From assembly GCF_963921235.1 (NCBI RefSeq), contig NC_086097.1:65412001-65476000 (forward strand): a stretch of DNA of 64,000 nucleotides, written 5' to 3'. Below the pieces are notes generated by a model, which saw nothing but the letters and a program-made list of their open reading frames with translations, was not told where the DNA came from and did no database searches. This document shows positions 1-61,350 of the stretch, piece after piece. Origin of the DNA: Mobula hypostoma (taxonomy: Eukaryota). Every line of letters starts with the position of its first letter. Position 1 is the stretch's first letter. The position numbers were made by a program, and so were the translations under genes.

Positions 1-1088
1 TTTGGGAAGTACTACTTCTGACTACCTGTGTGATAACATCATCACACAAGGTGACCAGAACAAGTGTGGTTTGAAGGCCCAACTACAGCATAGCCCCTCA
101 CCATCGAGTTTGGAGATGGCTTCATCTTGCAAGTTGGTCTTGGGAGAAGCACAGTCAATGTGATCCATCTTGTAGCAAATCAGACAACAGCATGGACTGA
201 TTGTTATTGACCGGAACTAAAGGGCCATGATAAGTTTTCTGAAATCATTTCACCTGATTTGTACTTAAGTGAAAAAACAAAATTTTGCACTAAGATGTTG
301 CTAAAATAATTCGAATCAACAAGTATTTAGAGATGGGGGGTTTTACTGGGGTGATTGAGGTTTACTCAAAATGCTAAATTTGTTCGTCCATGGTAATGAT
401 GCAATTCCACAAGATAATCTAAGATTAGAGCACAGCTGCATCAACATCTAGTTTTTAATTAGTTATGGCTGCACTCTACAGCCTCGACTAATGGTACTCA
501 AAAAAAGTTTGATTGAAATCACAATTATTTTGTGCATCTTGCAGCACTTAATCTTTTTTCTATTAAATGCAAACAATTTTACCAGATAAAAGAAAATTAT
601 AACTTAATGGTATGAGCAAACATGATCTGACTATTCACAGATGCTGAACTATACTCAATCATTGGGCTTCACATCCTTTCAAAACAATTTCTGACGAGGC
701 AATATATATTTGTCTTTGCAAATGTTGCCACAAGTCATGTTGCCTGACTTTAGTACTTTCTGTCTTCTAAATTTTTTTTAAACTAGTAGCAGGTTACAAG
801 TAATTCTGCTTGGGGAGAAATAAATCTAAATGCCCAATCATTCCTAAATAGCAGGATATTCTAAATGAATCTGGAACAGATGTTGATTTTGCTTTGCAGC
901 AGACACCAACAACTGAATATCCTGATCGTGCTAGTAATTCATAAATTCATCATGAAGAACAATGATCACAGCTACATTTATTCAATACTTAAAGAACAGG
1001 AATTCCGCAGATGCTGGAAATTCAAGCAACACACATCAAAGTTGCTGGTGAACGCAGCAGGCCAGGCAGCATCTCTAGGAAGAGGTAC

Positions 1089-1124
1089 AGTCGACGTTTC
1101 AGGCCAAGACCCTTCGTCAGGATT
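1089..1124 (-). ncRNA. Minimal type I hammerhead ribozyme in pLTR (stem I mismatch)
   Basis: Minus strand AATC-CTGACGA-AGGGTCTTGGCCT-GAAA-CG-TC-GACT. Confidence 0.8.
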
Positions 1125-1414
1125 AACTGAAGGAAGAGTTAGTAAGAGATTTGAAAGTGGGAGGGGGAGGGGGAGATCCAAAATGATAGGAGAAGACAGG
1201 AGGAGGAGGGATGGAGCCAAGAGCTGGACAGGTGATAGGCAAAAGGGATATGAGAGGATCATGGAACAGGAGGCCCAGGGAGGAAGACAAGGTGGGGGGG
1301 GGGGGAACCAGAGGATGGGCAAGGGGTATAGTCAGAGGGAGAAAAAGGAGAGTGAGGGAAAGAATGTGTGTGTAAAAATAAATAACAGATGGGGTACGAG
1401 GGGGAGGTGGGGCA

Positions 1415-1804
1415 TTAGCGGAAGTTAGAGAAGTCAATATTCATGCCATCAGGTTGGAGGCTACCCAGACGGAATATAAGGTGTTGTTCCTCCAACCTGA
1501 GTGTGGCTTCATCTTTACAGTAGAGGAGGCCGTGGATAGACATGTCAGAATGGGAATGGGATGTGGAATTAAAATGTGTGGCCACTGGGAGATCCTGCTT
1601 TCTCTGGCGGACAGAGCGTAGGTGTTCAGCAAAGCAGTCTCCCAGTCTGCGTCGGGTCTCACCAATGTATAGAAGGCCACATCGGGAGCACCGGACGCAG
1701 TATATCACCCCAGCCGACTCACAGGTGAAGTGTCGCCTCACCTGGAAGGACTGTTTGGGGCCCTGAATGGTGTAAGGGAGGAAGTGTAAGTGCATGTGTA
1801 GCAC
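1415..1804 (-). pseudogene. Penelope GIY-YIG endonuclease domain (ORF C-terminus, frameshifted from RT)
   Basis: GVIYCVRCSRCGLLYIGETRRRL...EHLRSV...VATHFNSTSH...EQHLIFRLGSLQPDGMN matches the PLE GIY-YIG pattern. Confidence 0.92.
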
Positions 1805-2344
1805 TTGTTCCGCTTACAAGGATAAGTGCCAGGAGGGAGATCAGTGGGGAGGGATGGGGGGGACGAATGGACAAGAGAGTCACGTAGGGAGCGATCCCTG
1901 CGGAAAGCAGAGACGGGCGGGAGGGAAAGATGTGCTCAGTGGTGGGATCCCGCTGGAGGTGGTGGAATTTACGGAGAATAATATGTTGGACCCAGAGGCT
2001 GGTGGGGTGGTAGGTGAGGACCAGGGGAACCCTATTCCTAGTGGGGTGGCGGGAGGATGGAGTGAGAGCAGATGTGCGTGAAATGGGGTAGATGCGTTTG
2101 AGAGCAGAGTTGATGGTGGAGGAAGGGAAGCCCCTTTAAAAAAGGAGGAAATCTCCCTCATCCTGGAATGAAAAGCCTCATCCTGAGAGCAGATGCAGCG
2201 GAAACAGAGGAATTGCGAGAAGGGGATGGCATTTTTGCAAGAGACAGGGTGAGAAGAGGAATAGTCCAGGTAGATGTGAGAGTCGGTAGGCTTATAGTAG
2301 AAATCAGTGGATAAGCTGTCTCCAGAGATAGAGACAGAAAGATC

Positions 2345-2855
2345 TAGAAAGGGGAGGGAGGTGTCAGAAATGGACCAGGTAAACTTGAGGGCAGGGTGAA
2401 AGTTGGAGGAAAGTTAATAAAGTCAATGAGCTCAGCATGTGCAGGAAGCAGCGCCAATGCAGTCGTTGATGTAGCGAAGGAAAAGTGGGGGACGGATACC
2501 AGAATAGGTACGGAACATAGATTGTTCCACAAAGCCAACAAAAAGACAGGCATAGCTAGGACCCATACGGGTGCCCATAGCTACACCTTTAGTTTGGAGG
2601 AAGTGGGAGGAGCCAAAGGAGAAATTATTAAGAGTAAGGACTAATTCCACTAGACGGAGCAGAGCAGTGGTAGAGGGGAACTGATTAGGTCTGGAATCCA
2701 AAAAGAAGCGGAGAGCTTTGAGACCTTCCTGATGGGGGATGGAGATATATAGGGACTGGACATCCATGGTGAAAATAAAGCGGTGGGGGCCAGGGAACTT
2801 AAAATCATCGAAAAGTTTAAGAGCGTGAGAAGTGTCACGAACATAGGTAGGAAGT
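2345..2855 (-). pseudogene. Penelope reverse transcriptase core fragment, inactive
   Basis: [29 protein letters not shown] and RYINDC (expected YIDD, so a catalytic Asp is replaced by Asn); frameshifts downstream. Confidence 0.92.
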
Positions 2856-3329
2856 GTAAGGGCATGTGTAGCACTTGTTCCGCTTACAAGGATAAGTGCC
2901 AGGAGGGAGATCAGTGGGGAGGGATGGGGGGGACGAATGGACAAGGGAGTCGCGTAAGGAGCGATCCCTGCGGAAAGCAGAGAGAGGGGGGAGGGAAAGA
3001 TGTGCTTAGTGGTGGGATCCCGTTGAAGGTGGCGGAAGTTACGGAGAATAATATGTTGGACCCAGAGGCTGGTGGGGTGGTAGGTAAGGCCCTTCTACTC
3101 CTGCCCAAGATCCACAAACCTGCCTGTCCTGGCAGACCTATTGTCTCAGCTTGCTCCTGCCCCACCGAACTCGTTTCTGCATACCTCGACATGGTTTTAT
3201 CCCCCCTTGTTCAATCTCTCCCTACCTATGTTCTTGGCTCCATCCCTCCCCCTCCTGTCTTCTCCTATCATTTTGGATCTCCCCCTCCCCCTCCCACTTT
3301 CAAATCTCTTACTAACTCTTCCTTCAGTT

Positions 3330-3365
3330 AGTCCTGACGAAGGGTCTCGGCCTGAAACGTCGACT
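3330..3365 (+). ncRNA. Minimal type I hammerhead ribozyme in pLTR (core intact)
   Basis: AGTC-CTGACGA-AGG(GTCTCGG)CCT-GAAA-CG-TC-GACT: stem I AGTC/GACT, stem II AGG/CCT, loopless palindromic stem III (ACGT), GUC cleavage triplet. Confidence 0.9.
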
Positions 3366-3985
3366 GTACCTCTTCCTAGAGATGCTGCCTGGCCTGCTGC
3401 GTTCACCAGCAACTTTGATGTGTGTTGCTTATTCAATACTTGATGATTTTAATATCAATGAATGTATCAACTGCACAGCAAATTACAATCCAGGACAGCA
3501 TTACTGAAATGACACTTTCAGAATATATCTAATGATTCCTTCTAACGACATTGTTGTGGGGGGGGGGGTTCCAGAATTCACTGCCCACCCCTTGCTTTTT
3601 TTGAGAAAATGCCTGTAAGCCATCCTTTTGTTTGCTGCAAACCATTTTGATAAGTGTTGTTTGATGAGGAGTTTCAAGACTTTGACCTTGGTACAATTAA
3701 GGATAAATGGTAACTTAGGGATGTGCTTGGGTGCCACTGTTGGAGAAGCTCTCCATGAATTGCTCTATTGCATCTCACGGATGATACCCAAAATCTAACA
3801 GGTGCCATCGATGTTTGAGTTGGTTAATGGACTGATGAAGACTTCTTTGTCTTAGTATAATTTTCCTGAGAATTATTTTAGACATTCTGACATTAAATGC
3901 CAAGACAGTTCAATACAGACTAGTCATGGCAAACTGTTGTCTCCTGTGTTACTGCAAAAAAATACTTAAGTTTTGACCAGATGCT

Positions 3986-4453
3986 CTCTCTCTCTGGCTA
4001 TCCATCCCATAGAATGATGATGGTTCCTTTCAGTCAGTTCATGGGGTGGTACCCCACTCCTCAGAAAGGAACTGCGTGTGTGTGAGTGGATTTTAGGTGA
4101 GTAGGGGGTTGCACAGGTCCAGACCTACCCTCTTGACATCCCCTCCCGGATCCAGCGGCATGGTAGGGTGCAAGACAGCTGGGAGAAGTTCTGCTGCCGT
4201 GAATGGCCAGACCAAGCTTCGATGCAAGGGATGCCCTTTCCGCACTTCACGGCACGTGTTTGTTTGATGGCCATTGACCCTATGAGAAGGTTCATCCACC
4301 CTTTGACTGGTAATGTTTTTCGTCCCGCAGGGTGTCTAGCCACCCTCCTCACTAGGCAAGCCTGGTGGGGGAGCCGCTTTAGTCGCCAACCACCCGACCA
4401 TGCGACAGGTAGTACCGGGTTACATGGTACCAGTGGCACTCAGACGAGTGACC
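3986..4453 (-). mobile_element. Non-autonomous non-LTR retroelement (RTE-like 5'UTR derivative) with (AG)n tail
   Basis: 12-bp TSD TGACCA(G/A)ATGCT (3974-3985 / 4454-4465); GC-rich relative to flanks; (CT)n at the left end is the 3' tail on minus; no recognisable ORF. RTE affinity is inference. Confidence 0.75.
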
Positions 4454-4919
4454 TGACCAAATGCTATGAAAGACACAAAATGTTTTTCTTAAATAATAAA
4501 TCACCAACTTCAAAATTCCCATCAAAAGGCAAATGCAGTAAATATTGAGCAAATAACAGATTCCTTAACTATTTATGTACACTTCCAAACTGTTTGATTT
4601 GGCATAAATTTACCAGTCTGCATGACTTAACTGTACAAGACAAAGTAAATGCAAGAGATCAGCTATCAACATTTCCAATATTGGCAGCATCGCTTCAGTT
4701 TAATACTTATCATTTTATTGCACATTTTTAGTAATAAATAACAATCCCTCAGTTTAGTAAACAGTATAAAATATTACAGAAGCATGGGAATTACTAAAAT
4801 GTACATTATGCTTGTAGACTAAATCTAACCAAGCCCTGTTCAAGATTAGTCCATTAATGACCATAATCTTTTTATCATCTTGTTAAAGAATCAAATTATC
4901 CAAGTACATTTTGGCATTG

Positions 4920-5050
4920 TTAGTGGCTTAGAAATTTGCCTCCTGTGTCAGAAATTTGCAGAGACGAATGCATCAATAATTCAGTGCCTTCCTGATTGAT
5001 GCAGGATTGCCAGAAGTGCTTTCTCATGGATCGAATATTAAACAAAGGCT
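4920..5050 (+). repeat. Highly decayed Deu-domain SINE remnant
   Basis: Weak similarity to the Deu core and to the better copy at 14.4 kb. Confidence 0.35.
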
Positions 5051-5424
5051 TGATATTCTTAACTTATGTGGACAAAAATTTTTCCCACAGATCTTGTTCC
5101 AAGAGGATCAGTAAAGTTAGTTCCAACATCCCGATTAATATAAATTCCAACAATTTTGGTTAATATTAATTCCTCAATCAACATCATTAAAATAGATTAC
5201 AAAATACAAACCAATGGAGGAACTCAGTGGGTCAAGTAGTCTCTACACAGCAAAACAAAAACTGCTGGGAGAAAATAAGAGTTCTTGCAACAGTTTGTTT
5301 CTTTATTCCAAATTCTTTGCTCTGCAGTCTCCTTTGTCCCACTAAAAGTAATCTATCTATTATTGTTCAGAAGTTGCACCTAAATTGGCTCCTGCATTTC
5401 TGAATTACAACAATACTAACATCC

Positions 5425-6125
5425 TCTCCAAGTTAATCAAATCAGCTTCAAGTCCTCGGCCTCAATACCTCCTTGTGCAACTGGATTCTCAACTTTCTCA
5501 CTTGCAGACGCCAGTCATTACAGATTGGCAATAACATCTCCTCCAAAATCTTCCTCACCACAAAGCTGTGTGCTTCGCTCCTGGCTCTACTCGCTTTATA
5601 TTGATATTTATATGACTGTAAGGCTAAGCACAGCACAAATGCTACATTTAAGTTTGCCAACAACACCAATGTCATTGGCTGAATCAAGGGTGCAACAAAT
5701 CAGTTTATAGGAGGGAGACTGATAATTGGGCTGAGTGGTGCCACAACCACAAAATGTCACTCAATATCATCAAGACTAAGTAGATGATTGTTGACTTCAG
5801 GAGGAGGAAACCAAAGTCCTTAAGTCAGTCCTCAGCAGGGGATCAGAGGTGGGGAGGGTCAGCAACTTTAAGTTCCTCAATGTTATCATTTCAGAGACTC
5901 TGTCCTGGGTCCAGCACATAAGTGCCATTACAAAGAAAGGACAGCAGCACCTCTACGTTCATAGAAATTTGCAACGATGTGGCATGTCATCTAAAACTTT
6001 GATACTTCTATAGACATGTGGCAAGAAGTATATTGACCGGTTGCATCACAGCCGAGTATGGAAACACCAATTCCCTGTACAGAAAAGCCTACAAAAGAGT
6101 AGTGGATACAGCCAAGTATGTGGGA
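5425..6125 (+). mobile_element. Degenerate Rex1/Babar-type LINE RT fragment
   Basis: Remnants of WILNFL, KFA(DD)T, K(A)QQ(R)LY and SILTGCIT motifs with stops and frameshifts. Confidence 0.8.
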
Positions 6126-6647
6126 TACTGTACAATGGAAAAGCAAAAAATTTTCTTCCTGTACGTGACCTTTTACATCTCTCACAGATATAACAAAAGT
6201 GACTATTAAGATATTCATTTTCCTGTAAACTACTATTAAATATTAGTTCAGAAAGCAAAACCTATGACAAATGAAGGCTGACAAAAAATAATGATCTTGG
6301 TCATCTTTTACAGGGTGGTCCCACATAGAGATAACTGTGAGATATTGTTTTGTGCTGAATTTTAAGTACTTTGAAGTGGAAGCCCATGCCTTGTTACCAG
6401 GCAGGAAGAAAGAAATATTGGTCATTTTCTGTTGATAACTTAACAAAGTTCTATTTGAGATATATTCACCCATATATTCCTAAATCAATTGTTTTAGTCT
6501 TATAAAACAAGTTATAATAACAAATAGTCCATATATTATGTTTCAAAACTCATTAAAATTCTCTGTAGCAAATCATTATTGAAACTATTAGAAGCCATGA
6601 TTAGACAACAGGGAAGTCTTTTGCCATTGTGAATCATGGATCTGATA

Positions 6648-7271
6648 TGATTATGATTATGAGGACATGCACCCTTTTATTGTCATTTAACAAATGATAA
6701 AATGTTTTTCCAGAATATCACAAAAAACACATGACAAACCGACTTAAAAACTAACAAAAACCACATAATTATAACATATAGTTACAACAGTGCAAAGCAA
6801 TACCGTAATTTGATAAGAACAGATCATGGCACAGTACAAGTCTCAAAGTCTCTCGAAAGTCCCATCATCTCACGCAGACGGTAAACCTTCAACGCCGCCA
6901 ACTTGCTGGTGCAGCATCCTGGAAGCATCCAACAACAGTCCGACTCAGAGTCCGTCCGAAAAAATCCAAGCCTCCCACCACCTATTCGACTCTGAGCACC
7001 AAGCACCATCTCTGCCGAGTGTTTCGACCCCAGCCCCAGCAACAGGCGATACACAAAGCCAAGGATTAGGGGCCTTCGTCTCCGGAGATTCTCGATCGCA
7101 CAGTAGCAGCGGCAGCGAAGCAGGCATTTCAGAAGTTACTTCAGATGTTCCTCTGCGCTTCTCACGGCTGTCTCCATCAAATCCGGATTGTACACGGCCC
7201 CTAGTTACACATACTATATCATTCGGAACGGCCGCGCGCACTACATCGCACCATCTTCTCCTCCCTCCTCC
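6648..7271 (-). mobile_element. Non-autonomous LINE derivative (GC-rich head joined to a short tandem tail)
   Basis: (ATGATT)n at the left end is the 3' tail on minus; CpG-rich head starting GGAGGAGAAGATGG; possible 6-bp TSD CTGATA (6642-6647 / 7272-7277). Confidence 0.6.
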
Positions 7272-8256
7272 CTGATAAGAACTTCCGAATGAAATTGTGT
7301 GTTAGACAAGAATTATTAAATATGAAATTAATAACATAGGATCAGACCCTGATGATTTTAACCAGTAATTATTTTGTTGAAATGTGATGCTCATCACATT
7401 CAGCACGTGCTTCTCTGCACTACAACATGGAAGTACAGAATGTCCTGAAGATCAGAAGTCACTGGATCTGGACTCCATTTCCAATTCTGAACTCAGCACT
7501 AAACCAACAATAAAAAAAATCCTAACTATACTGAGCTGAGTGGTAAAAAGATGCTTTACATTCAGCCTCTCAGCTTTATTTTCGCCATAACCACAATCCC
7601 ATTCACTGGAACAGGATCACCAATCTTCATTGAGAGAGTAGGTGAGGCTAGGTGCATTTTTAACTTTTTCTGAAAGGAGACACACATGTACAAACAGTAC
7701 AGAAATCCTACTGACAGCACATAGTGCAAGAATGCAGCCATGGGACCTGATGACTAAGGCATGTCATTGCTTATGGGTCACACCATAACACGGGACAATT
7801 GGATCAGAATACCTTCAGGATGTGGACACAAAGGCCATTTGTTTGAATTCAAAAGTTGGCCTGAGGGATCTCATAGGAGACAGATATAAGGTGTTGGCGG
7901 AGTCAAGCATAATCTAATTCAATGTCTACATCTATCAAGTCAACATTATTGACTTTAATTGTTTTCACTTAACTTAATGCAAGCAAAATTACCATTTTCT
8001 ATAACGAACAAGCAACAGATTTTGCCCATGCAAAATCAGACGCTATTGTAATGGCAGATTGAATTCTACTTCTATTATAATACAACATAATTTGACTCTT
8101 TGAATATGTGCAAATCAGCATTTGATCTCAGCCTTTATCAAAAATACCTTTCTTGGGGGAAAAAACCAGCAGATTATAAGATTTTTCCATGACAAGACAT
8201 TTGCCAATTTCTATTTTGACAGTGCTTAAGATAAACTAATGGTCTATAACAAACTG

Positions 8257-9275
8257 GACTACAACAGGAATCTAAACAAATCCTTAAAGAAATGGGGATG
8301 CCTGGACATCTGATCTGCCTTATGAGAAACTTGTACAAAGATCAAGAAGCAACAGTTAGGACTAAATACGAAACAAAAACTGGTTCAAGATTGGGAAAAG
8401 AGTACGACAAGGCTGCATACTGTCACTCTACTTATTTAATCTATATGCTGAACACATCATGGGGAATGCTGGTCTCGAGGACTCAAATGTTGGAATCAAA
8501 ATTGCTGGATGAAATATTAACAACCTCAGATGATACTACTCTAATGGGTGAGAGTGAGGAAGATCTGAGGAAGCTTCTAATCAAAGTAAAAGACGAAAGT
8601 GCTGGCTTGTTGCTCAATATTAAGAAAACCAAGATTATGTCGACCAGCCCTATTAACTCCGTGGTAATAAATGAAAAGGAAGTGGAAGCAATGACGGATT
8701 TTGTCTTTCTTGGTTTAAAGATTTCTATAGATGGTAACTGCAGCCACGAAATTAAACGGCGCTTACTTCTGAGAAAGGCAGCAATGGCAAATTTAGATAA
8801 AATACAGAAGACCAGAGTTATAGCATTGTCTACAAAGGTCCGTATAGTCAAGACTATGATATTTCCAGTTGTGATGTATAGCTGTGAGAGCTGAACTATT
8901 AGTAAGGCTGAGTACAAAAGAATTGACATCTTTGAACTTGGCTGCTGGAGGAAAGTGTTAAGAGTCCGTTGGACAGCATGAAGGTACAACAAGTCAATAT
9001 TTCAAGAAATACAGCCAGACTGCTCACTGGGAGTGAAAATATTTTGGCCACATCATGAAAAGGCATGATTCCTTGGAGAAGACTCTCATGTTAGGTAAAA
9101 CAGAAAGTAAAAGATGGAGAGAACAACAGAGGCTACGATGGATAGATAATATTACTCAGACAATGTGTATGACCTTGGAGGATCTTAGAGAGGCAGTTTC
9201 CAACAAGAAGGCTTGGTGTGTAGGAGTCCATGAGGTCATGAAGAGTCGGACTCCACTTAACAACTGAATAACAAC
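8257..9275 (+). mobile_element. BovB-like RTE LINE, 5'-truncated and frameshifted
   Basis: MGMPGHLICLMRNLY..QEATVRT, DDTTLMGESEEDL, LNIKKTKIM, CSHEIKRRLLL, FPVVMYSCES, DSLEKTLMLG, KSRT; 11-bp TSD ATAACAAACTG (8246-8256 / 9276-9286); (AAC)n-like tail. Confidence 0.92.
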
Positions 9276-21979: not shown

Positions 21980-22170
21980 AACAGGAGATTGCAGATGCTG
22001 GAATTTGATGGAAAAGTGCTGGAAGAATTCAGTTAATCAAGCAGTATTTATAGAAGTAACAGATTGGTTGACATTTTGAATCAGAACCATGCATCAGGAC
22101 TGAGAGTGTAAAGGGAAGATAGCTAGTAAATGGGAGTGAGAGGGAGGGATGAGACAGAGGCAAGTAATTG
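21980..22170 (-). mobile_element. Old Penelope pLTR-derived short element with decayed hammerhead
   Basis: TGCAGATGCTGGAA terminus; minus strand CAGTCCTGATGC...CAAAATGTCAACC. Confidence 0.55.
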
Positions 22171-22625: not shown

Positions 22626-23724
22626 TAGAACATAGAATAGTACAGCACAGTACAGGCCCTTCGGCCCACAAAGTTGTGCCGACCCTTAAACCCTACCTCC
22701 CATATAACACCCCCCCCTTAAATTCCTCCATCTACCTGTCTAGTAGTCTCTTAAATTTCACTACTATATCTGTCTCCACCACTGACTCAGGCAGTGCATT
22801 CCACGCACCAACCACTCTCCGAGTAAAAAACCTTCCTCTAATATCCCCCTTGTACTTCCCACCCCTTACCTTAAAGTGATGTACTGAGCAGTGGTGCCTT
22901 GGGGAAGAGGCGCTGGCTGTCCACTCTATCTATTCCTCTTAATATCTTGTATACCTCTAACATGTCTCCTCTCATCCTCCTTCTCTCCAGAGAGTAAAGC
23001 CCTAGCTCCCTTAATCTCTGATCATAATGCATACTCTCTAAACCAGGCAGCATCCTGGTAAGTCTCTTCTGTACCCTTTCCAATGCTTCCACATCCTTCC
23101 AATAGTGAGGCAACCAGAAATGGACACAGTACTCCAAGTGTGGCCCAACCAGAGTTTTATAGAGCTGCATCATTACCCCGCAACTCTTAAACTCTATTCC
23201 TCAACTTAAGAAAGCTAACACCCCATAAGCTTTCTTAACTACCCTATCTACCTGTGAGGCAACTTTCAGGGATCTATGGACATGTACTCCCAGATCCCTC
23301 TGCTCCTCCACAATACCAAATATCCTGCCATTTACTTTGTACTCTGCCTTGGAGTTCATCCTTCCAAAGTGTACCACCTCACACTTCTCCAGGTTGAATT
23401 CCATCTGCCACTTCTCAGCCCACTTCTGCATCCTATCAATGTCTCTCTGCAATCTTTGACAATCCTCTACACTATCTACAACACCACCAACCTTTGTGTC
23501 GTCTGCAAACTTGCCAACCCACCCTTCTACCCCCACATCCAGGTTGTTAATAAAAATCACAAAAAGCAGAGGTCCCAGAACCAATCCTTGTGGGACACCA
23601 CTAGTCACAACCCCCCAACCCAAATATACTCCCTCCACCATGACCCTCTGCTCTCTGCAGGCGAGCCAATTCTCAATCCACCTGGCCAAACTTCCCTGGA
23701 TCCCATGCCTTCTGAGCTTCTGAA
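22626..23724 (-). mobile_element. CR1 LINE 3' portion (young family)
   Basis: GVPQGLVLGPLLFVIFIN, KFADDTK, YKTLVGPHLEYCVHFW; TTCTATGTTCTA tail. Confidence 0.95.
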
Positions 23725-23783
23725 ATCATTTCTTGTAATCATGGGCACAGCAGCTGCCATAACATGCTGTGTAGCATCCAGAT

Positions 23784-23878
23784 CTAGTCCTGACGAAGGG
23801 TCTCGGCCTGAAACGTCGACTGCGCCTCTTCCTATAGATGCTGCTTGGCCTGCTGCGTTCACCAGCAACTTTGATGTA
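23784..23878 (+). mobile_element. 95-bp Penelope pLTR micro-insertion (hammerhead plus tail)
   Basis: Perfect 14-bp TSD TGTAGCATCCAGAT (23770-23783 / 23879-23892); content matches the pLTR from about 3329 onward. Confidence 0.9.
23786..23821 (+). ncRNA. Minimal type I hammerhead ribozyme (core intact)
   Basis: AGTCCTGACGAAGGGTCTCGGCCTGAAACGTCGACT, identical to 3330-3365. Confidence 0.88.
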
Positions 23879-24169
23879 TGTAGCATCCAGATATAATGTT
23901 TTCCATAGTGCATCTTCAAAAAAATTAGTGACAATCATTAGGGATGTGTCAAAGAAGAAAACAGATGAGGGAGGGTTGATGGGCAGAGGTGCCAAGTGGT
24001 GGAGTTTTAGAAGTGTACTGAGAGAGATGCTGCTGGGTGACAGGTGAAAACATCAGAATGGAGGCACATGGGATGGAAAAAGCGAAGTGAACGAAGGAAG
24101 AATGACCCTATGTGAATCGCTGAGAATGGGAAAGGAACACAGGGCGTGAGGGTTGCCATTGCACTGAAC

Positions 24170-24670
24170 GCTACCCAAGTGGAATTTGAGATTGTTCTTC
24201 TAGTTTGCACTTGGCTGTACCATGGTATTAGAGAAAGCCAAGGACAGACAATTCTGTGTGGGAATGGGAAGGAGAGCTGAAGTGACATATAACCAAAAGC
24301 TTAAGATGGCTGTTATGGAGAAAATGCAAATGCTCCACAAAGTAACTACTAGGTCTATATTTGATCTCACTAATGTAGAGGAGGCCATATTGAGATCACT
24401 GAATGCAGTAGACCAGTTTGGAGGAGGTATATGTGAATCTTTGCCTCACACAGAAGCGCTGTTTGGTATCACTGGATGGTGGTAAGATGGGGCTGGGAAA
24501 AGTTCCAGCAGAATGGGAGGGATGGGTGGAAAGGAATGACAGGACCAGGAATTCATGGAAAGGGTGACTCCTGCAGTCAGCATAGGGGTGGTTTGGGAAG
24601 GAGAGCAAATGGAAGAAGATATGGTGGGATCCTTTGGTACTGGTGGGATGGTGAAAAATTCCTGGAGCAG
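24170..24670 (-). mobile_element. Ancient Penelope GIY-YIG region remnant
   Basis: KQRFCVRQRFTYTSSKLVYCIQ parallels KQSFQVRRHFTCESAGVIYCVR of the young element. Confidence 0.65.
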
Positions 24671-29660: not shown

Positions 29661-30525
29661 GCTTTTTGGCAAACAGTAAATTTGCATGTGTGGTCTGTGT
29701 TCATATTAGTAACAATCCTACTTTTCCTTAAAAAGAATATTTAAACTTTTATGTTTTGTATTTACCCATGTTTATTTATTGGAAATGGCCTTCTCAACAT
29801 TATTCCCATACATTGTCGAGCTATGTTACTGTTAGTTTGTATTCACAGTAATAGCTAGCTCATTACAAGCCTACAGTGAGTGGGTTACATGCTTTTGTGG
29901 CTTGTTTGGAATGAATGCTGCATGAATGTTATACTTTGGCTGTATATTGATTGGATAGCCTGTATAGCCCGGGGCAACTTATTGGCCAAATGTTAGCAAG
30001 ACAAATCTTATTGGCCAATTCAACAAGCCTACCTTATCAATAAACTGAATTACACAACTGTATAATGTAATTAAAGGAACACATTGCATTTTGAGAAAAT
30101 CTGCAGAAAATAAAACACCCAAGAGCAGAGCTGTATTAATACAATAAAGCAAGGTGTTAAACCAGGGTATTACACTTGTAACCATTCATTTACCTTAGTA
30201 AATGTAGCAAAGTGACTTCAAGTTGAATTGCTAACAATGCCACATCCTAATGATCCCCCCTTCTGCTAGGTGAAATCTTCTTTCTCTCAACAAATCGAAT
30301 ATACCACTGATTAAGTTGATGTTAATGGAATTATGGTGAATTTCTACCTCACTGCTTCTTGTGGAGGGGATTACAGCTTTCAAGCACACAGCAAATAATA
30401 GTGGGAATCACAGACCAGAAGAGAACTAGGCAATAGGTGGCTGTCTCTTTTTCCAATTCTGCTGTGCAAGAAGTCAAGAGGCAAGCTAACCAGCTACAAG
30501 AAAAAAATCTTCTGGTCCCATGTTT

Positions 30526-30746
30526 AAAATGCAAACAACAGGAATTCTGCAGATGCTGGAAATTCAAGCAACACACATCAAAGTTGCTGGTGAACGCAGC
30601 AGGCCAGGCAGCATCTCTAGGAAGAGGTACAGTCGACGTTTCAGGTCGAGAGTCCTGACGAAGGGTCTCGGCCTGAAACGTCAACTGTACCTCTTCCTAG
30701 AGATGCTGCCTGGCCTGCTGCGTTCACCAGCAACTTTGATGTGTGT
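30526..30746. mobile_element. 221-bp fold-back Penelope pLTR element
   Basis: TSD TGGTCC(C/T)ATGTTT (30513-30525 / 30747-30759); 83-bp inverted arms 30569-30651 / 30666-30748. Confidence 0.92.
30651..30686 (+). ncRNA. Minimal hammerhead ribozyme at the fold-back apex (stem I mismatch)
   Basis: AGTC-CTGACGA-AGGGTCTCGGCCT-GAAA-CG-TC-AACT. Confidence 0.75.
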
Positions 30747-30959
30747 TGGTCCTATGTTTGCTAGTTTATGAGTTATTAGAAATTCCCAGCTTCATTGCTG
30801 AAAATATGAAGTAAGGTTATGAAATGTAGTTCTTTTGAGATAATAGAGGAGAATATTGAAGGAGCAGAGGAGAGATAGAAAACTAAGACCTGAGTTGCAC
30901 CAGTTTGCTTCCTAAGCTGTACCAAACATCAATCAAGCATTAACCATTCATGCAACAAC

Positions 30960-35995: not shown

Positions 35996-38577
35996 ATGTA
36001 ACTTTTTAAAGTTGAGGGTTATAGTATCATAAATACTCAGTTTGTTTTGGGCAGAAACTTTCCGCTCTCCCATTGCAAATATGTAGTAAGGATTCTCAAT
36101 CATATCAGCTCATCTAATCATGAAATATATTTCTTCTTTGTCTGAGACTTATAGAAAGGTATTTGTGTTGCAATGCTTTCTCAATTACATCTTCAATGAT
36201 ACAAATTCAAAACTTTCCAAAGCAAACCTTTCTTTCTAAAGTGCTATTAAGTAATATACAGATTCAGCATGTGGTGAGATTATTTACCAAGGAAGAAGGT
36301 GATGACATTTAGCAATAGGAGCTGGCTGAGTGACATTATACAAACACAAGTATTCACCCTTAACGTTATTTGATCCATCTCGCTAAACTGACTACTAAAA
36401 ATACACTTAAACAATGATATATAAACTCTACGTTTATCTACACCATTAATGTATGGAACTGAAAAATACTCTCCTTTACACATTCTAAAGATAAAACTCA
36501 ATATAAATTAGTAAAAATTCCCACATTAAACTAAAGCTTTATGTAGTTGAAGGTGGTGTATAATAAATTGGAAAGTGTTGGCTTTTATTCAATGAAAAAA
36601 CAACATGTTAATAGTTACATAAATCCCATATATTAGCTAAGATCAGTACCTGAAGTTAAGACATGCCATGAGGTAAGTCAAACACTATACCATTAATGTG
36701 TATGGGAGGGCAAAAAGTACTTGCATAACTACATTTTCTATAAGTGATTGGTAATGTACTGTATCACCCACTATTGTCATATTATTTCTCTCATTATTTG
36801 TAGTTTATTCTCAAACTCTTCAAACCTTCAGTATCAACTCACTTGATCTCCATCCTTGGAAGTTCTTGGATGTGCTTGTCCAAATCTTTTCTTTAAATTT
36901 ATTGATTAATGAAAATTTCATGCTATTTATCCCATCTATTACATGTATTTCAATATAAACAGCTATGTATTTCCAACTTTTTTACACCCCCCATAGTATC
37001 CCATTTATCTTGTTATGTTTTAATTTCATTTATGGTCCATATTTCTTAATTGCTTCCTTTTATCTTTGTTTAGTATATCCTTTGTCAGAGATACCCTTTA
37101 TGAATTAGCTTCAGCTGCTTGCTCCCTTAAATTGCTCATCTGTCTATATGTTGAAAATCTCTAGTCCAGCACCCTTGCGATCTGTCTGGTGCCAGACCAC
37201 AGAAAATCTGGACCACAGAAATTGCTCCCCAATAATCATCCTTCAAGAGAACTGATTTTTCTAAGTATATACACCTCTATGTTACATAAGGGTTCCAAAA
37301 CTGCCAGTTGTCCAATGTTTCCGTAGATCAGAAGTGCTGTTGGCTCAGATCATAAAATTGTAATGGTAGATTAATTAGCCATAGGTTAGTATTCACCCTA
37401 GTTAATTTTTGATATTGGTTAGATCTTATTTCAAATTAGTTTATCAGTAAAGATCTGTACCACAATTATAAACATGCTGAACCAAATTCTTGGATGAACT
37501 TGCCAGAATGAACTCAAGCTGATAAAGCCATTCCCACAAGAAACCCTGTAAGAAATTTCAAGACATTCTCCAATCATAACTACAAGATGTATTGCAAGGC
37601 TTAATACTCTTCTCAACACATAGAGAATATGAGCACAGATTCAGAACTGAACAACAAACAGTTGACTCTTATTGTTGATTATATGTCAAAATCAATATTT
37701 CTAACAGCACGATGCTTGTCACAAGGAGCTGTCTCACGTGGGTTGTCCCTCAACACATCCATACTTGCTTATCATCTATGCCTAAACATCACTTCTCACA
37801 TCCAACTTTGCATCATATTCTTCTCTAATAGGGCAGGTACAAGGTTTGGCTCAAGACCAAATGAAATTCCTCTGCAGTGTACTAACTCACACACCAGAGG
37901 GGGAGTTGAGAATCCTTGCATTTGAGCAGCAACTAACTTGTAACATAAATATCTGTCAACGTTTATCAAATAAATGTTATACTTTTACAGATGGCTGAAG
38001 AACACTAATGAGATTAGTTAATAAGATTTAAGAGGATTGTAGATGAGTTCATGATATATTGATGATCAGTCAACTAAAAACATCAAAAAACGATCTGAAA
38101 CATTGACAGTTCTTTCCTCCCCAGCCCCCACCCCACAGATGCTGCTTGACCCATTGAATTCCTCCAACACATTGTCTGTTGCTCCAGATTCTGGCAACTC
38201 TGGTCTCTTGAGTCTCAATGGAAAACAATTATCAGTTACTTCTTTTACATTTCAAAGGATTTGGTTAGCAATAGGCTCTACTAAATCTGGAATGAATCAA
38301 TAATCATAGATCATACTAATATCTAAGTAAAAATAAATCTGCATGGATTTTTAAGCAAGCGTCTTGATCTGTTCCCACTTGACATTCTGATGAGTTAAAA
38401 AACAAGGCACCCAACTTAGAGGGGCAAGTTGCGTCCAAAATTCTTGCTATGATAGAAAACAAAAGGTAATAGCCAATGGGTATTGCAGTAACTGAAAGCA
38501 TGACACAAAATTTTGTATCACACCCCTTGAGCTTCATGGTAGATTTAAATTTAAATCTTTAAAAAACCATCAATAAG

Positions 38578-39505
38578 AAATGTCTGCAGAAATTAGTGTT
38601 CAGCAATGGAGGGAAATAAACACTTGAATCCTTCATCAGGACCGGAAATGAAGGAGGCAGAAGCCAGAATAAAAAAGGTGGGGGGAGGGGAAACAGTGCA
38701 AACTGGCAAGTGATAGGTGTGACTAGTTGAGCCGGAAGGTGGGTCAGTGAGGGAGGAGGAGCAGAAAGGGGATATGTGGAAGAGGGAAAGGGCTGAAGGA
38801 GGAAACTAACAGGATACTGGCAGATAGGCAATGAGGAGATCCTGCCTTTCATGGCAGACAGAATGAAGGTGCTCGATACCAGGAGGCAGGATCTCCTGAT
38901 GGCCACCCGTTTCAATTTGACTTCCCATTCCCTTTCCGACATTATAGTCCACAACCTCATCGACTGCCACAATGAGGCCACACTCAGGTTGTAGAGCAAC
39001 ACCTCATATTCCGTCTGGGTAGCCTTTAAGCCTGACAGCATGAACATTGACTTCTTCAGCTTTGGTAATTCCCCACTCCCTTCTTCCTTCTTTTTTTCTG
39101 TTCCCCAAACTGGTCACCCTCTCACCCCTTCTCTTCTTATCTGCCTTTCACCTCCTTCCACTTCCCTTCCTCCTCTTTCTTTCATGGTCCACTGAACTTT
39201 GTTTCCCAGTTCCTTCTTCTCCATTTCCTTCCTCAGCCCTTTCTTCTTCCACCTATCCCCTCTCACCTTCTTACTTCTTCCACGCTGCCCCTCCCACCAA
39301 AACCCCCCTCACCTCATCTGTCACCCACCAGTTTGCACTCCTTCCCCTGTCCCCACTTTCTTATTCTGGCTTCTGTCCCCTTCCTTTCCAGTCCCAATAA
39401 AGGGCCTCAGCCTGAAAGATAAACTGTTCATTCCCCTCCAGTGATGCTGGCTGACTTGCTGAATTCCTCCAACATTACGCTGCTTAAGATTTCCAGCTTC
39501 TGCAG
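38578..39505. mobile_element. Older Penelope derivative with inverted arrangement
   Basis: Minus arm to about 38878, plus arm from about 38880 carrying the GIY-YIG C-terminus (H..FRLGS..PD.MNIDF) and pLTR; decayed hammerheads at about 38625-38645 (-) and 39390-39427 (+). Confidence 0.75.
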
Positions 39506-39519
39506 TTTGTGAGGCTTCA

Positions 39520-45800: not shown

Positions 45801-46092
45801 GGCCATTTTAACAGTCAATGATGTAACTTTTTTTTTTGCAGTTGTTGCTTAGAAATAGGATCTAACATGAGGAGAGTGATTGGGCAGGATATCAGCATTG
45901 AACAGGTTTGGCAGGATGGCATGCCGACTGAGCTTGGGAATGTGGTCCACGACCAGGGACTAGAGAGGTTGTTTGTAAGCCAAAGAATTTTTTTTAAATT
46001 GAGGGATATTAGTTAGTGTAATTCTCCAAGATGGCTTACAATGGGAAATAAAGTTAAAAAGTAAGGACAATTAATCACTCCCTTAATATTAC

Positions 46093-46299
46093 AAAAACAT
46101 GCAAAATTTGCTATGTTTCTTAAATTTGTATTTGCAATCATAAATTTAAAGAGAAAATTATAAAAACATGGAAAATTTGCTATGTTTCTTAAATTTGTAT
46201 TTGCAATCATAAATTTAAAGAGAAAATTATAAAAACATGGAAAATTTGCTATGTTTCTTAAATTTGTATTTGTAATCATAAATTTAAACAGAAAATCAT
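46093..46299. repeat. Minisatellite, 3 x 69 bp
   Basis: Units start at 46093, 46162 and 46231 and are nearly identical. Confidence 0.95.
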
Positions 46300-48409
46300 T
46301 GAAATATGACAGCCTTACTTCATAAAAAGCAGGTCATTCAGTGAAAATGTCAGGACGTCTCTTGCTATCTGTGTTAACATCCATTGATTACTGCATATAG
46401 TTCAGTTCCCATTTCACTGAGTTATTAACTATTACTTAGGACACCTATGTCACAATTCATTTGCACGTAATCTTTTTCAAGGAAGTACAAACTACCCACA
46501 AAGTATCTAACCTTGCATTCACACCTTTCAAACAATATCTAACCTGACATTGTTTTTAAGAATCATTTAAACAATCTGTCACCTTTTCTCACTTTTCTAA
46601 CAAATAACATGAGTATGGGTGTATGCCCATTATCTTCTCTATTCAAATCAAAGGATTAATCTAATTTTAAGATGATGACAGGAAAAAAATCAAAATTGCT
46701 CCCTTAAAGTTCTTAAACAACCAGGCCGTTTAGCACTTCTGGCTTCAAATGGATAGTATATTACAGAATTGCTGCAGAAAAATAACTTCACTCTTGAGAA
46801 AGACAACATTATGAACTTATCTGTGAAGAAAATAATAAATTTCATACTTTATATCAATGTCAATTTCCATTTTCAACAAAGAACTGAAGTATCTTAAATC
46901 TCAAAGGAATTGAGACATGCCACTAAAAGTTAGAGACGTATTAACAGTTCTCAATGGGAAAGTTGATTTTCCCAGTCTCGTAATACTACAGTAATTTGGA
47001 AAAGAAGGGATTTAGTTTGAGTTACTTAATAAGAAGTCATCACTACAATACAAATGCTAACTTTCAGATAAAATATTCTGATTATGTACGATAATACATT
47101 GTCAAACTATAGGGACTAATTTGCTCTGTCTACAGTTAACGGTGTTCCCATTATAGGCAGTTTTGGACATGGTGTTTGACCTTTGACAACAGCACAGTTA
47201 TTTCCCACAAGTTGGAGCCTGGACAATAGTTTACTTTATGCCTTTAGTTCAGGCTACTATGTTTCTTCAGGAAGATCTCAAGCAGAAAAGCCAACATCCC
47301 TGACAAGCACGAGAGAAGGCACCAAGGGTCCAAATAGTAAATGTTGGAAAACAAATGGCAAAGCACACAAAATGACATCTGGAATCCTAACGGGCCACCA
47401 AAGATTCTCAATCCAAGGAGGAATTAATACTGTTTTTTCACCATCCCTTGTGCTAACTTCTCTGTTTATAGACAGTAATAAATGATTCTTAAAAACATAT
47501 TTAGGTCATGATGTCATATACCACCAGCATGTAGCGTTGTTTTATTGCACTTGTAGTCAAAATATGCCCCTATACCCACATGTCAGGAAAGCTGACTCTT
47601 TCATTACTTCTGGATTCACTTTTGTTGGACAAATACTTCTGGATTTTAAAAAGGGAAACTTTTTTTTAAATGGCCAGTGATCCCATGCAGCAGTAAAATT
47701 CACACCAGTATCTTCCTACATATTATTATTATTACACTGTGTTGTAAGAAACCAAGAAGCTAAAGTTTCCTAGCATGACAAAAAGCAAACAGAACAAAAA
47801 ACAATGGTGGAATGTCTAAAAACATTAACAGTCTATTTCTTCACTTTAGATCTGTTGTGAGCATTGCTAGACCTTCCAACTTATAATCAATTAATATCAC
47901 AAAGAAGCTATAGATCATTGTTATTTTTGTTTGATGGTGAACTCAAATTGCCATTGGACTTCAGAACAAAATACAGCCAGTCTTTAACGTCTGCCAACCT
48001 GAATTCAAAGTATTCAAAACATGCAGCAGTACACTCAGAACCTGTCTTATACTCTTCTATTGATATTGGTGTTGGTTTATTGATGTCACATGTACCAAGA
48101 TACAGTGAAAGGCTCATCTTGCATAGTTCATAAAAATCAAAATCATTTCCTATACTACTGAAATCAATGCAATTACTGTTGGGTTGGGTGTAAAAAATAA
48201 GCACCGTGCATTAGTATGGAAAATAAATTCTAACATCTGCAATGACATTCACCTGTCTCAAAAATGATTAAAGTTTCAAAATTTCAGTCACCAACTGAAA
48301 TTCTGAGTGGAAATTAGCAGTGGACTATTTATTTGAATATTCATTATTCAAAATCCTTATGTTAAACTTGCGGGTGGATGGGGTAGAGATGCATCTCTAC
48401 CAAAGACGA

Positions 48410-51400
48410 TAAGATATCTAAGGAGTAGAATTAGGCCATTTCACCATTTCATTATAACTGATCCATTTCTTTCTCAGCATGAACCTCCTGCCTTCTCCTG
48501 AATCAACAAGCAAATTAACCATTAAGGAATCCTGCACGAGGAATCCCGAGTCCCCATGAACCTCAGATTATTTCTCTCCATTTAGAACATAGTCTACACT
48601 TCAATTTCTTCTACCAAAGTGCATGACCATACACTTCCCAACACTGTATTCCATCTTTCACTTCTTATTCCATTCTCCTAATTTGTCTAAGCTCTTCTAC
48701 AGCCTCTCTACTTCCTCAACAACTGTTTTGGCCAAAAAAGCCATCCATTCCATCATCTAAAGCACTGACATATAACGTAAAGAGAAGTGGTCAAAACAGA
48801 GACCTCTTTGGAACACCACTAGTCACCAGCAGCTAGCTAGAAAAGGTTCCGTTTAACATAGAATAGAACATAGAACAGGACAGTACATTACAGGCCCTTC
48901 GGCCCACAATGTTGTGCCAACCCTCAAACCCTGACTCCCATATAACCCCCCACCTTAAATTCCTCCATATACCTATCTAGTAGTCTCTTAAACTTCACTA
49001 GTGTATCTGCCTCCACCACTGACTCAAGCAGTGCATTCCATGCACCAACCACTCTCTGAGTAAAACACCTTCCTCTAAAATCCCCCTTGAACTTCCCATC
49101 CCTTACCTTAAAGCCATTTCCTCTTGTATTGAGCAGTGGTGTCCTGGGGAAGAGGTGCTGGCTATCCACTCTACCTACTCCTCGTATTATCTTGTACACC
49201 TCTACCATGTCTCCTCTCATCCTCCTTCTCTCCAAAGAGTAAAGCCCTAGCTCCCTTAATCTCTGATCATAATGCATACTCTCTAAACCAGGCAGCATCA
49301 TGGTAAATCTCCTCTGTACCCTTTCCAATGCTTCCACATCCTTCCTATAGTGAGGCGACCAGAACTGGACACAGTACTCCAAGTCTGGCCTAACAAGAGT
49401 TTTATAGAGCTGCATCATTACATCGCGACTCTTAAACCCTATCCCTCGACTTAAGAAAGCTAACACCCCTTAAGCATTCTTAACTACCCTATCTACCTGT
49501 GAGGCAACTTTCAGGGCTCTGTGAACATGCACCCCCAGATCCCTCTGCTCCTCCACTCTACCAAGTACCCTGCCATGTACTTTGTACTCTGCCTTGGAGT
49601 TTGTCCTTTCAAAGTGTACCACCTCACACTTCTCCGGCCACTTCTCCTCACACTCCATCTGCCACTTCTCAGCCCACTTCTGCATCCTATCAATGTCTCT
49701 CTGCAATCTTCGACAATCCTCTACACTATCTACAACACCACCAACCTTTGTCTCATCTGCAAACTTGCCAACCCACCCTTCTACCCTCACATCCAGGTCA
49801 TTGATAAAAATCACTAAAAGTCGAGGTCCCAGAACAGATTCTTGTGGGACACCACTGGTCACAATCCTCCAATCTGAATGTACTCCCTCCACTACCACCC
49901 TCTGCCTTCTACAGGCAAGCCAATTCTGAATCTACCTGGCCAATCTTCCCTGGATCCCATGCCTTCTGACTTTCTGAATAAGCCTACCGTGTGGAACCTT
50001 GTCAAATGCCTTACTAAAATCCATATAGATCACATCCACTGCACTACCCTCATCTATATGCCTGGTCACCTCCTCAAAGAACTCTATCAGGCTTGTTAGA
50101 CACGATCTGCCCTTCACAAAGCCATGCTGACTGTCCCTGATCCGACCATGATTCTCTAAATGCCCATAGATCCTATCTCTAAGAATCTTTTCCAACAGCT
50201 TTCCCACCACCGACGTAAGGCTCACTGGTCTATAATTACCCAGACTATCCCTACTAACTTTTTTGAACAAGGGGACAACATTCGCCTCCCTCCAATCCTC
50301 CCGTACAATTCCTGTGGAAACGAGGACATAAAGATCCTAGCCAGAGACTCAGCAATCTCTTCCCTCGCCCCGTGGAGCAGACCTGGGGAATATTCCATCA
50401 GGTCCCGGGGACTTATCCATCCTAATGTACTTTAACAACTCCAACACCTCCTCTTCCTTAATATAACATGCTCCAGCACATCAACCTCACTCATATTGTC
50501 CTCACGGTCATCAAGTTCCCCCTCATTGGTGAATACCGAAAAGAAGTATTCATTGAGGACCTCACTCACTTCCACAGCCTCCAGGCACATCTTCCCACCT
50601 TTATCTCCTGTCATCCTTTTGTTCTTCACATAATTGAAGAATGCCTTGGGGTTTTCCTTTACCCTACTCGCCAAGGCCTTCTCATGCCCCCTTCTTGCAC
50701 TTCTCAGCCCCTTCTTAAGCTCATTTCTTGCTTCCCTATATGTCTCAATAGACCCATCTGATCCTTGCTTCCTAAACCTCATGTATGCTGCCTTCTTCCA
50801 CCTGACTAGATTCTCCACCTCACTTGTCACCCATGGTTCCTTCACCCTACCATTCTTTATCTTCCTCACCAGGGCAAATTTATCCCTAACATCCTGCAAG
50901 AGATCTCTAAACATCGACCACATGTCGATAGTACATTTCCCTGCAAGAACATCATCCTAAATCACACCCACAAGTTCTAGCCTTTTGGCCTCAATTTGCC
51001 TTTCCCCAATTAAAAATTTTCCTGTCCTCTCTGATTCTTACCTTTTCCATGATAAATGCTAAGGGCCAGGGAGTGGTGGTCACTGTCCCTCAGATGCTCC
51101 CCCACTGAGAGATCTGTGACCTGACCCAGTTCGTTACCTAGTAATAGATCTAGTATGGCATTCCCCCTAGTCGGCCTGTCCACATACTGTGACAGGAACC
51201 GTCCTGGACACACTTAACAAACTCTGCCCCATCTAAACCCTTGGAGCTAATCAGGTGCCAAACAATATTAGGGAAGTTAAAATCACCCATGATAACAACC
51301 CTGTTATTTTTGCACCTTTCCAAAATCTGCCTCCCAATCTGCTCCTCTGTATCTCTGCTGCTACTAGGGGGCCTATAGAATACCCCCAATAGAGTAACTG

Positions 51401-53220: not shown

Positions 53221-53792
53221 TTTAATTCCACATCCCATTCCCATTCTGACATGTCTATCCACGGCTTCCTCTACTGTAAAGATGAAGCCACACTCAGGTT
53301 GGAGGAACAACACCTTATATTCCGTCTGGGTAGCCTCCAACCTGATGGCATGAACATTGACTTCTCTAACTTCTGCTAATGCCCCACCTCCCCCACGTAC
53401 CCCAGCCATTATTTATTTATATACACACATTCTTTCTCTCTCTCTCCTTTTTCTCCTCTGTCCCTCTCACTATACCCCTCCCCCCACTTCCTTCTCCCTG
53501 GGCCTCCTGTCCCATGATCCTCTCATATCCCTTTTGCCAATCACCTGTCCAGCTCTTGGCTCCATCCCTCCCCCTCTGTCTTCTCCTATCATTTTGGATC
53601 TCCCACTCCCCCTCCCACTCTTAAATCTTTTACTAGCTGTTTCTTCAGTTAGTCCTGATGAAGGGTCTCGGCCTGAAACATCGACTGTACCTCTTCCTAG
53701 AGATGCTGCCTAGCCTGCTGCGTTCACCAGCAACTTTGAGGTGTGTTGGTTGAATTTCCAGCATCTGCAGAATTCCTACTGTTTGCGTTTTT
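53221..53792 (+). mobile_element. Penelope 3' fragment (endonuclease C-terminus plus pLTR), same family as 991-3428
   Basis: FNSTSHSHSDMSIHG...GSLQPDGMNIDFSNF followed by the full pLTR; no TSD seen. Confidence 0.93.
53651..53686 (+). ncRNA. Hammerhead ribozyme, CpG-decayed (stem III ACAT)
   Basis: AGTC-CTGATGA-AGGGTCTCGGCCT-GAAA-CA-TC-GACT. Confidence 0.7.
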
Positions 53793-60677: not shown

Positions 60678-61350
60678 ATATCTGGTGCTGCTGATGCAGC
60701 TTCCTCTACATCGGTGAGACCCAACGTAAATTGTGGGACCGCTTTGTTGAGGACCTTTGCTCCATCCACCAAAAGCAGAAATTTCCAGTTGCCAAACATT
60801 TTAATCCCTATCCCCATCCCCATTCCCATTCCAACATGTTGGTCCATGGCCTCCTCTCTTGCCACAAAGAGGCCACTTCTGAGGGTGGAGGAACACCTCG
60901 TATTCCATCTACGTAGCCTCCAACCTGATGGTATGAACATCGAATTCTCTTTTGGGTTTTTCCCCTCCCCCTTCCCTCTTCTTTCATTCCCCACTCTGGC
61001 TTCTTACCTCTTTTCCGCACCTGCCCATCACCCTCCCCTTGGAGGCCCTCCTTCCTTACTTTCCCCTATGGTCCACTCTCCTCTCCTATCAGATTCCTCC
61101 TTCTCCAGCCCTTTACCTTTACCATCCATCTGACTTCTCTGATCACTAGTCCTCCTCCTCATCCTCACCCCAACATTTTTTTCTAGCATCTTCCCTCTTC
61201 CTTTTCAGTCCTGAAGAAATATCTTGGCCAGAAACGTCAGTTGTTTATTCATTTCCATAGAATGATGCTGCCTGACCTGCTGAGTTCCTCCAGCATTTTG
61301 TGTGTATTGCTCTGGACTTCCAGCATCTGCAGAATCTCCTGCATTTATGA
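60678..61350 (+). mobile_element. Older Penelope 3' fragment (GIY-YIG plus pLTR, decayed hammerhead near 61206-61240)
   Basis: LYIGET, VAKHFN, EEHLVFHLRSLQPDGMNIEFS; CAGTCCTGAAGA...GAAACGTC; terminus TTCCAGCATCTGCAGAATC. Confidence 0.88.

Follow-up and report, generated by a model that had tools for sequence, protein, structure and literature searches.

The hammerhead motif at 3330-3365 of a 64,000-nucleotide stretch of the Mobula hypostoma genome (GCF_963921235.1, NC_086097.1; this whole stretch is called the window here) lies in one arm of an inverted retroelement insertion, and it raises the question of whether the ribozyme, by pairing two element RNAs, gives rise to such inversions, or whether they are the work of the element's protein on RNA left uncut. 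The insertion, called locus A, contains the following features:

978-990, plus strand: left target-site duplication, 13 bp, identical to 3429-3441
991-2848, minus strand: left arm, a 5'-truncated, frameshifted PLE with RT core, CX4CxxC linker, GIY-YIG and a pLTR end with the distal 'tail'
1089-1124, minus strand: the left arm's hammerhead motif, short of one stem I pair, the changed letter being the family's minority letter
2845-3092, minus strand: further copy of the RT-EN linker, with 94% identity to 1775-2022, attached through a short microhomology
3092-3231, plus strand: inverted RT piece (residues 144-190 of P0001), ending within about 13 nt of the start of the left arm
3232-3428, plus strand: right arm, a pLTR end that stops at the proximal 3' end, without tail
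3310-3331, plus strand: 3' splice-site-like signal with a branch-point-like TACTAAC, a pyrimidine tract and CAG at 3325-3327
3330-3365, plus strand: intact minimal type I hammerhead with stem I (3330-3333/3362-3365), CUGACGA core, bulged A, 4-bp stem II with G10.1-U11.1, GAAA and a loopless ACGU stem III
3429-3441, plus strand: right target-site duplication, 13 bp

With 3330 as position 1, stem I spans positions 1-4 and 33-36, and between its strands lie the CUGACGA core at 5-11 followed by the bulged A, stem II at 13-16 and 21-24, GAAA at 25-28, and then C, G, U and C17 (position 32); the cut is predicted after this GUC, at 3361. An earlier note, made from the letters alone, had listed five young copies of this motif (at 1089, 3330, 23786, 30651 and 53651) and four decayed ones, and the letters at all nine coordinates are as it gave them. 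The CUGANGA...GAAA...UH core is indeed kept in all five young copies, and the core pattern has four exact matches in the window vs. 0.00 expected from 100 shuffles. All four stem II pairs, including two wobble pairs, form in every young copy, and all four stem I pairs in three of the five, with three pairs in the copies at 1089 and 30651. The palindrome, by contrast with what had been claimed, is not universal: GAAACGUC is present in four of the five, the copy at 53651 having ACAT instead. Only the copies at 3330 and 23786 (2/5) combine the core, a full stem I and the ACGU palindrome and can be called complete. A hammerhead scan of the window that requires the stems matched only at 3334, 23790 and 53655. 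The check with covariance models that had been proposed was negative, no Rfam hammerhead model matching the window at E<=10, and an exact-pattern scan of metagenome contigs for the young motif gave 0 matches.

By its letters, the motif is the published minimal type I hammerhead of PLEs, in the end repeat of a Neptune-type element. PMC4209133 (Cervera and De la Pena 2014) describes such minimal hammerheads (min-HHR) in the pLTRs of metazoan PLEs, fish Xena, Poseidon and Neptune elements included, with weak activity in vitro even for dimers; the review PMC6765202 also cites Lunse et al. on them. Minimal hammerheads with a loopless palindromic stem III are thought to cleave as dimers (PMC4209133; PMC6765202), as the earlier note had rightly stated. 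The ray motif agrees with the min-HHR of PMC4209133 in its type I form, its CUGANGA and GAAA core with an extra base between 9 and 10.1, its 4-bp stem I, the lack of loop 3, the palindromic 15.2-16.2, and its occurrence in end repeats, mostly as single truncated copies, thousands per genome. It differs in having G10.1-U11.1 (or A-U) for G-C and a stem II of only 3-4 bp, and its copies are probably more numerous than the 4,000-9,000 reported for coelacanth and Xenopus. The motif, the dimer model and the inverted architecture are all already published, and the sole oddity of the ray family is the G-U at 10.1/11.1. All five young copies carry it in place of the G10.1-C11.1 that is highly conserved in PLE min-HHRs; it may be a fixed CpG change, and an alternative A10.1-U11.1 register is possible in the young family. 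With G-U for the conserved pair, the ribozyme is likely to be weak in the ray family.

The motif is located just downstream of the RT/GIY-YIG frame, on the sense strand of that frame and about 290 nt past the GIY-YIG stop, which is where a pLTR lies. In locus A the frame runs from 1415 to 2848 on the minus strand and holds RT and GIY-YIG fragments, on which the Pfam matches are weak. Its closest named proteins are from Mobula and Hypanus (85-89% identity for all but one of the four best such matches), and others are from sharks and skates, a pattern that by itself points to a probable batoid host. Between GIY and YIG the endonuclease carries two cysteines, with a pair of histidines further on (CCHH), and the order of RT followed by a C-terminal GIY-YIG with CCHH is that of canonical C-terminal EN+ PLEs as PMC8557442 defines them. 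The RT-EN linker is CX4CxxC (CKRNKCYTC), and a CX2-5CxxC linker is kept in full-length relatives. In the same source this linker separates Neptune or Nematis from Penelope/Poseidon, so that the endonuclease cysteines and histidines together with the CX4CxxC linker place the ray element in Neptune or Nematis; Neptune and Poseidon are the clades reported in vertebrates. On these residues, the name Neptune given in the earlier note appears apt. No start codon could be assigned to the ray element. No description of the ray family was found in the main text of the papers cited here, and the supplements of PMC4209133, PMC8557442 and a bioRxiv preprint may list it; the preprint, bioRxiv 10.64898/2026.07.22.740005, includes one chondrichthyan genome. 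Searches on shark/Neptune Penelope, twin priming and recent work on mechanism listed no paper on the ray family or on ribozyme-tethered templates.

The family is abundant. Stretch 400-2840 is present in sequencing runs of at least nine organisms, and in one DNA run (X1) 330,281 contigs map on 700-2840, which bears out the very large genomic ribozyme load that had been anticipated. The summed depth in X1 is 1.18e7 at the motif vs. 11.1 on the unique flank, figures that are not a copy number; allowing up to 31 overlapping contigs per base, the contigs suggest 3e4 to 1e6 related copies. The element is also found in contigs of three runs guessed to be RNA, from which transcription does not follow. 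Among the contigs no site was listed at which many molecules start or stop, and contigs do not resolve RNA ends. Copies in the window are single or inverted and none is a direct tandem, unlike non-LTR retrozymes, which are tandem non-coding units each with a hammerhead.

Relatives were taken from the best 80 of 449 loci. These yielded 13 stem-complete motifs, in 11 of the 80 loci and none in controls, and all 13 are loopless and palindromic (12 ACGU, one AGCU). Of 48 core-only matches, 23 have a stem II of at least 3 bp (stem I not required), and among these 20 are palindromic and all 23 have G10.1-C11.1. As 20 of the 23 are palindromic and the stem-complete ones are all loopless, the loopless ACGU stem III can be regarded as a clade trait. 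In one relative (L078:126) AGCU replaces ACGU in stem III, a covariation that preserves self-pairing; the palindrome kept across the clade and this one change argue that dimer pairing matters for something. Two loci (L008 and L032) contain inverted pairs, and a third (L001) a direct tandem with a motif on either side of the frame. In the young family a reading frame is open through the motif at 3084-3428 (plus strand); the matching frame in L027:310-3729 is the start of the element's long open frame and runs through the motif.

The remaining young motifs of the window are in these insertions:

23785-23878, plus strand: simple insertion of 94 nt, starting at the stem I edge, with an intact motif at 23786-23821
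30526-30651, minus strand: inverted arm, missed by the earlier note, from motif position 16 (3' half of the motif) to the end of the distal tail
30651-30746, plus strand: arm starting at motif position 1, with the motif at 30651-30686 (3/4 stem I), to the proximal end
53214-53792, plus strand: 5'-truncated copy from the end of GIY-YIG to the tail, with the motif at 53651-53686, palindrome broken

The 94-nt insertion is flanked by a 14-bp duplication (17 bp with one mismatch) at 23770 and 23879, and the pair at 30526-30746 by 30513-30525 on the left and 30747-30759 on the right, 12/13 identical; no target-site duplication was found for the 53214 copy or the three old loci. This insertion of 94 nt agrees with its target at 7 of 8 bases at the 3' end of the insert (23870-23895), which suggests microhomology-helped priming. 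The two young inverted loci (991-3428 and 30526-30746) are single tail-out insertions within 13-bp duplications. Both have their 3' ends outward, one arm ending 64-67 nt past the cut and its partner 102-109 nt, which gives two 3' ends, one proximal and another 35-45 nt further. All six young arms extend 61-110 nt beyond the cut site, and none starts at it.

At these loci each arm includes sequence missing from its partner. In the 30526-30746 pair, the tail is confined to the minus arm and motif positions 1-15 to the plus arm; in locus A, RT residues present in the right arm are absent from the left. Two separately primed cDNAs are therefore needed. Inverted arms of rotifer PLEs have been attributed, from palindromic junctions (PMC3846280), to self-priming by fold-back on one nucleic acid strand, and the old pair at 38579-39511 does repeat a short stretch on either side of its junction. 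At both young loci, however, neither arm can be a copy of the other, so that sequence alone excludes fold-back there, unless a longer antisense template was trimmed afterwards, and fits dual priming by the protein; we consider fold-back very improbable as the source of the inverted arms.

The architecture itself is familiar from EN+ PLE insertions, which have an inverted 5'-truncated partner, a tail on one end and a 9-10 bp duplication (PMC3846280; PMC8557442). Like Pen2a_Av (PMC3846280; PMC8557442 Fig. 2), the ray loci have an inverted truncated partner, a 30-40 bp tail at one end only and a single short target-site duplication around the whole unit. The ray duplications measure 13-14 bp vs. 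8-10 bp in the Pen2a_Av type, and locus A adds internal template jumps.

Within locus A, about 200 nt into the right arm the sequence switches to RT residues 144-190, and the left arm switches to the second linker copy. The three internal junctions (2845-2862, 3080-3110 and 3215-3245) have microhomologies of 2-6 nt. The right arm lands within about 13 nt of the left arm's exit from the RT frame, which looks like reciprocal template exchange. In L1 twin priming, one staggered cut supplies two primers, and the inverted and main pieces meet to within a few bases of each other. The ray loci resemble it in both respects, but their two cDNAs begin close to the RNA 3' end and cover the same 100-200 nt, which calls for a second template segment.

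Variation at locus A bears on where that segment came from. The linker copies differ at 15/248 sites vs. 3/199 for the end repeats (Fisher P 0.016), and at each of the three sites in the end repeats it is the left arm that carries the minority letter. Departures from the family majority amount to 38/1850 sites in the left arm and 0/199 in the right end repeat (P 0.046; 0.10 without CpG sites), with 38 of the 40 listed differences (of 361) used and two of share <50% dropped. By these letters locus A points to two templates, as a hint only, two molecules and one tandem transcript looking alike. In the second case both cDNAs would come from one transcript with two end repeats, whose hammerheads could pair in cis. 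PLEs are transcribed from tandem arrays (PMC11167929; PMC6765202), the relative L001 has its motif on each side of the frame in direct tandem, and the meeting of the locus A arms within about 13 nt suggests a shared molecule; the window, on the other hand, has no tandem copy, and the linker copies of locus A have few listed minority letters in common. A single tandem transcript is a possibility worth keeping, though on balance an unlikely one.

For the inversions as such, we think it likely that the element's protein makes a staggered cut in the two DNA strands and primes one cDNA per end on RNA that the ribozyme has not cut. The lengths of 61-110 nt beyond the cut site indicate that the templates of the six young arms would not have been cut at the GUC site. 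A protein dimer, by analogy with the Anolis element, may hold both DNA ends and the template or templates; the two separately primed cDNAs would then be joined head to head through microhomologies of 1-3 nt, as the geometry suggests, with template jumps in locus A. Cleavage by the ribozyme would require a dimer, be slow and depend on help from the protein, trimming tandem transcripts as a side step. Intact 3' motifs are compatible with cleavage of this kind, since a cut at the upstream tandem copy leaves the downstream copy whole.

Biochemical support for dual priming comes from a Poseidon element and is by analogy, that clade being another than that of the ray family. According to PMC11167929, the purified Anolis PLE protein cuts and extends both strands and is a predicted dimer; the element has two RT start sites, ribozyme mutants insert normally and cleavage requires the protein. 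The mutants C3G and G8C abolish catalysis but may leave stem III pairing intact. The Poseidon element studied there, PAc of Anolis carolinensis, resembles the ray element in its two 3' ends past the hammerhead, its uncut motif and its AT-rich targets, and differs in clade, Poseidon being without the CX2-5CxxC linker.

The earlier note had instead proposed that two element RNAs pair through the hammerhead, by the ACGU stem III and swapped stems I, and that this holds two templates together and makes the inverted and chimeric insertions. The need for two cDNAs at both young inverted loci survives from that proposal, and the linker divergence and the majority right arm of locus A count in its favor; ribozyme pairing as the cause is not supported. 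Dual priming by the protein is favored because the back-to-back copies all keep the cut site intact, whereas an active pair would remove the 3' segment where copying starts, a segment kept in all six arms. Naiad PLEs (PMC8557442) have the same tandem and inverted structure without canonical hammerheads, although some keep core letters.

Folding predictions, which leave out tertiary contacts, Mg2+ and protein, point the same way. The 36-mer folds into an inactive rod of -10.0 kcal/mol with the core paired to the cleavage strand, the core of the monomer being 96-98% mis-paired. The 36-mer can form a domain-swapped duplex of -28.3 kcal/mol, its best dimer, but this is an inactive fold, and the homodimer gain is matched by 84/200 shuffles. 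An active double hammerhead reaches -9.5 vs. -20.0 kcal/mol for two monomers, 10.5 less stable, and the predicted probability of ACGU pairing between motifs is about zero. In longer RNA context the predicted intermolecular pairs shift out of the motif, the dimer signal of a 131-nt RNA (3/40 shuffles) mapping to a GGCC loop outside it. A predicted hairpin with this GGCC loop, at 3382-3402 downstream of the motif, is the dimer contact of the young family and is absent from old copies. RNAalifold on the five window copies, few as they are, returned the inactive rod with little covariation. The two changes in the 53651 copy were considered as compensation for this rod and rejected, both being CpG-type changes.

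The positions of arm ends are a weak point on the side of RNA pairing. The motif contains the ends of three of the six young arms (positions -1, 1 and 16) and, of the three inverted junctions, that of the 30526-30746 pair, which argues that it shapes where cDNAs stop; the junctions of locus A and of the old pair (38579-39511) are outside the motif. All told, RNA pairing is an unlikely cause of the inversions. Two of the six young arms (23785 and 30651) start within one base of the 5' edge of stem I, the third end being at position 16. The end of a freshly made cDNA could fold onto the complement of stem I that it carries and so come off the template. More speculatively, the hammerhead may have given up cutting and become an RNA-RNA clasp and RT stop that holds two templates in the protein dimer; locus A would then record a reciprocal template exchange between polymerases, with the right cDNA arriving at the left one's point of departure and the left one switching to a second RNA. 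We regard this as quite unlikely.

The preferred reading, dual priming on uncut RNA, leaves the ribozyme a slow cutter, and it is doubtful, though conceivable, that the motif no longer cuts at all in the ray family and persists as a structural, splicing or coding feature and an RT stop. The G10.1-U11.1 pair of all five young copies vs. G-C in 23/23 relatives, the mis-paired monomer core, the L027 frame that is open through the motif and the huge amplification of the family would agree with this, as would an acceptor-like signal that overlaps stem I. Yet two intact copies retain all core letters and the palindrome, no majority core change is found among the 40 listed of 361 differences, and an A10.1-U11.1 register is possible as well. 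A rod-favoring C at N7, considered as a special off-switch, was rejected because it is also present in 11/23 relatives.

The signal at 3310-3331 is one that we take to resemble a 3' splice site. A second AG is inside stem I (3330-3331), giving two AG acceptors 4 nt apart. Of the seven window copies that include the upstream region, six keep a CAG, and 690 X1 contigs part ways here, with CAG closing a pyrimidine tract; the AG at that place is missing in 12/13 invertebrate-type relatives. No matching splice joint was found among the 15 listed of 1,326 joints in contigs from the three RNA-guess runs and one DNA run. Old copies have their acceptor-like AG within stem I itself. An intron that ends at the 5' end of helix I has been reported in Drosophila virilis (PMC4209133).

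Decayed relatives of the young motif are found in these older insertions:

21983-22107, minus strand: old pLTR end with a decayed motif at 22070-22100, core broken
38091-38197, plus strand: further old relic starting mid-motif, also missed by the earlier note (profile search E 2.4e-11; not in the profile)
38579-38848, minus strand: old inverted arm with a half motif at 38625-38645
38886-39511, plus strand: old arm with the end of GIY-YIG and pLTR, and a decayed motif at 39390-39427
60681-61341, plus strand: old copy with GIY-YIG, pLTR and tail; motif at 61206-61240, core letters kept, stems lost

None of the four old copies listed in the earlier note passes the stem-requiring scan, and in the one at 38625 the 3' half is gone, leaving half a motif. 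They are about 70-75% identical to the young family and their flanks differ, so that they look like older sister families. Nine motifs are present in the 64 kb as claimed, but they correspond to about seven insertions, because those at 1089 and 3330 share one 13-bp duplication and those at 38625 and 39390 form one old inverted pair (38579-39511). A profile search, built on six window copies whose own scores are circular (best control E 4.7), also matched the arm at 30540-30651 (minus strand) and four weak relics (E 5e-4 to 0.012). An old GIY-YIG relic of another PLE lies at 24204-24449 (minus strand), with no motif found after it.

The ray family offers clean test material in its very numerous copies, its intact target duplications and its pair of defined 3' ends; the gain is a good system for tests rather than a new type of system.

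The window contains other repeats as well. Two LINE-type RT fragments, 89% identical, are at 22626-23724 and 48864-51611, together with an AP-endonuclease frame. An open frame at 55379-56068 (minus strand) with a Pfam ALKBH8_N match (E 9.8e-9) lies inside a repeat and is presumably retroelement-derived. A tandem repeat with a period of about 69 nt, in about three copies, occupies 46085-46308.
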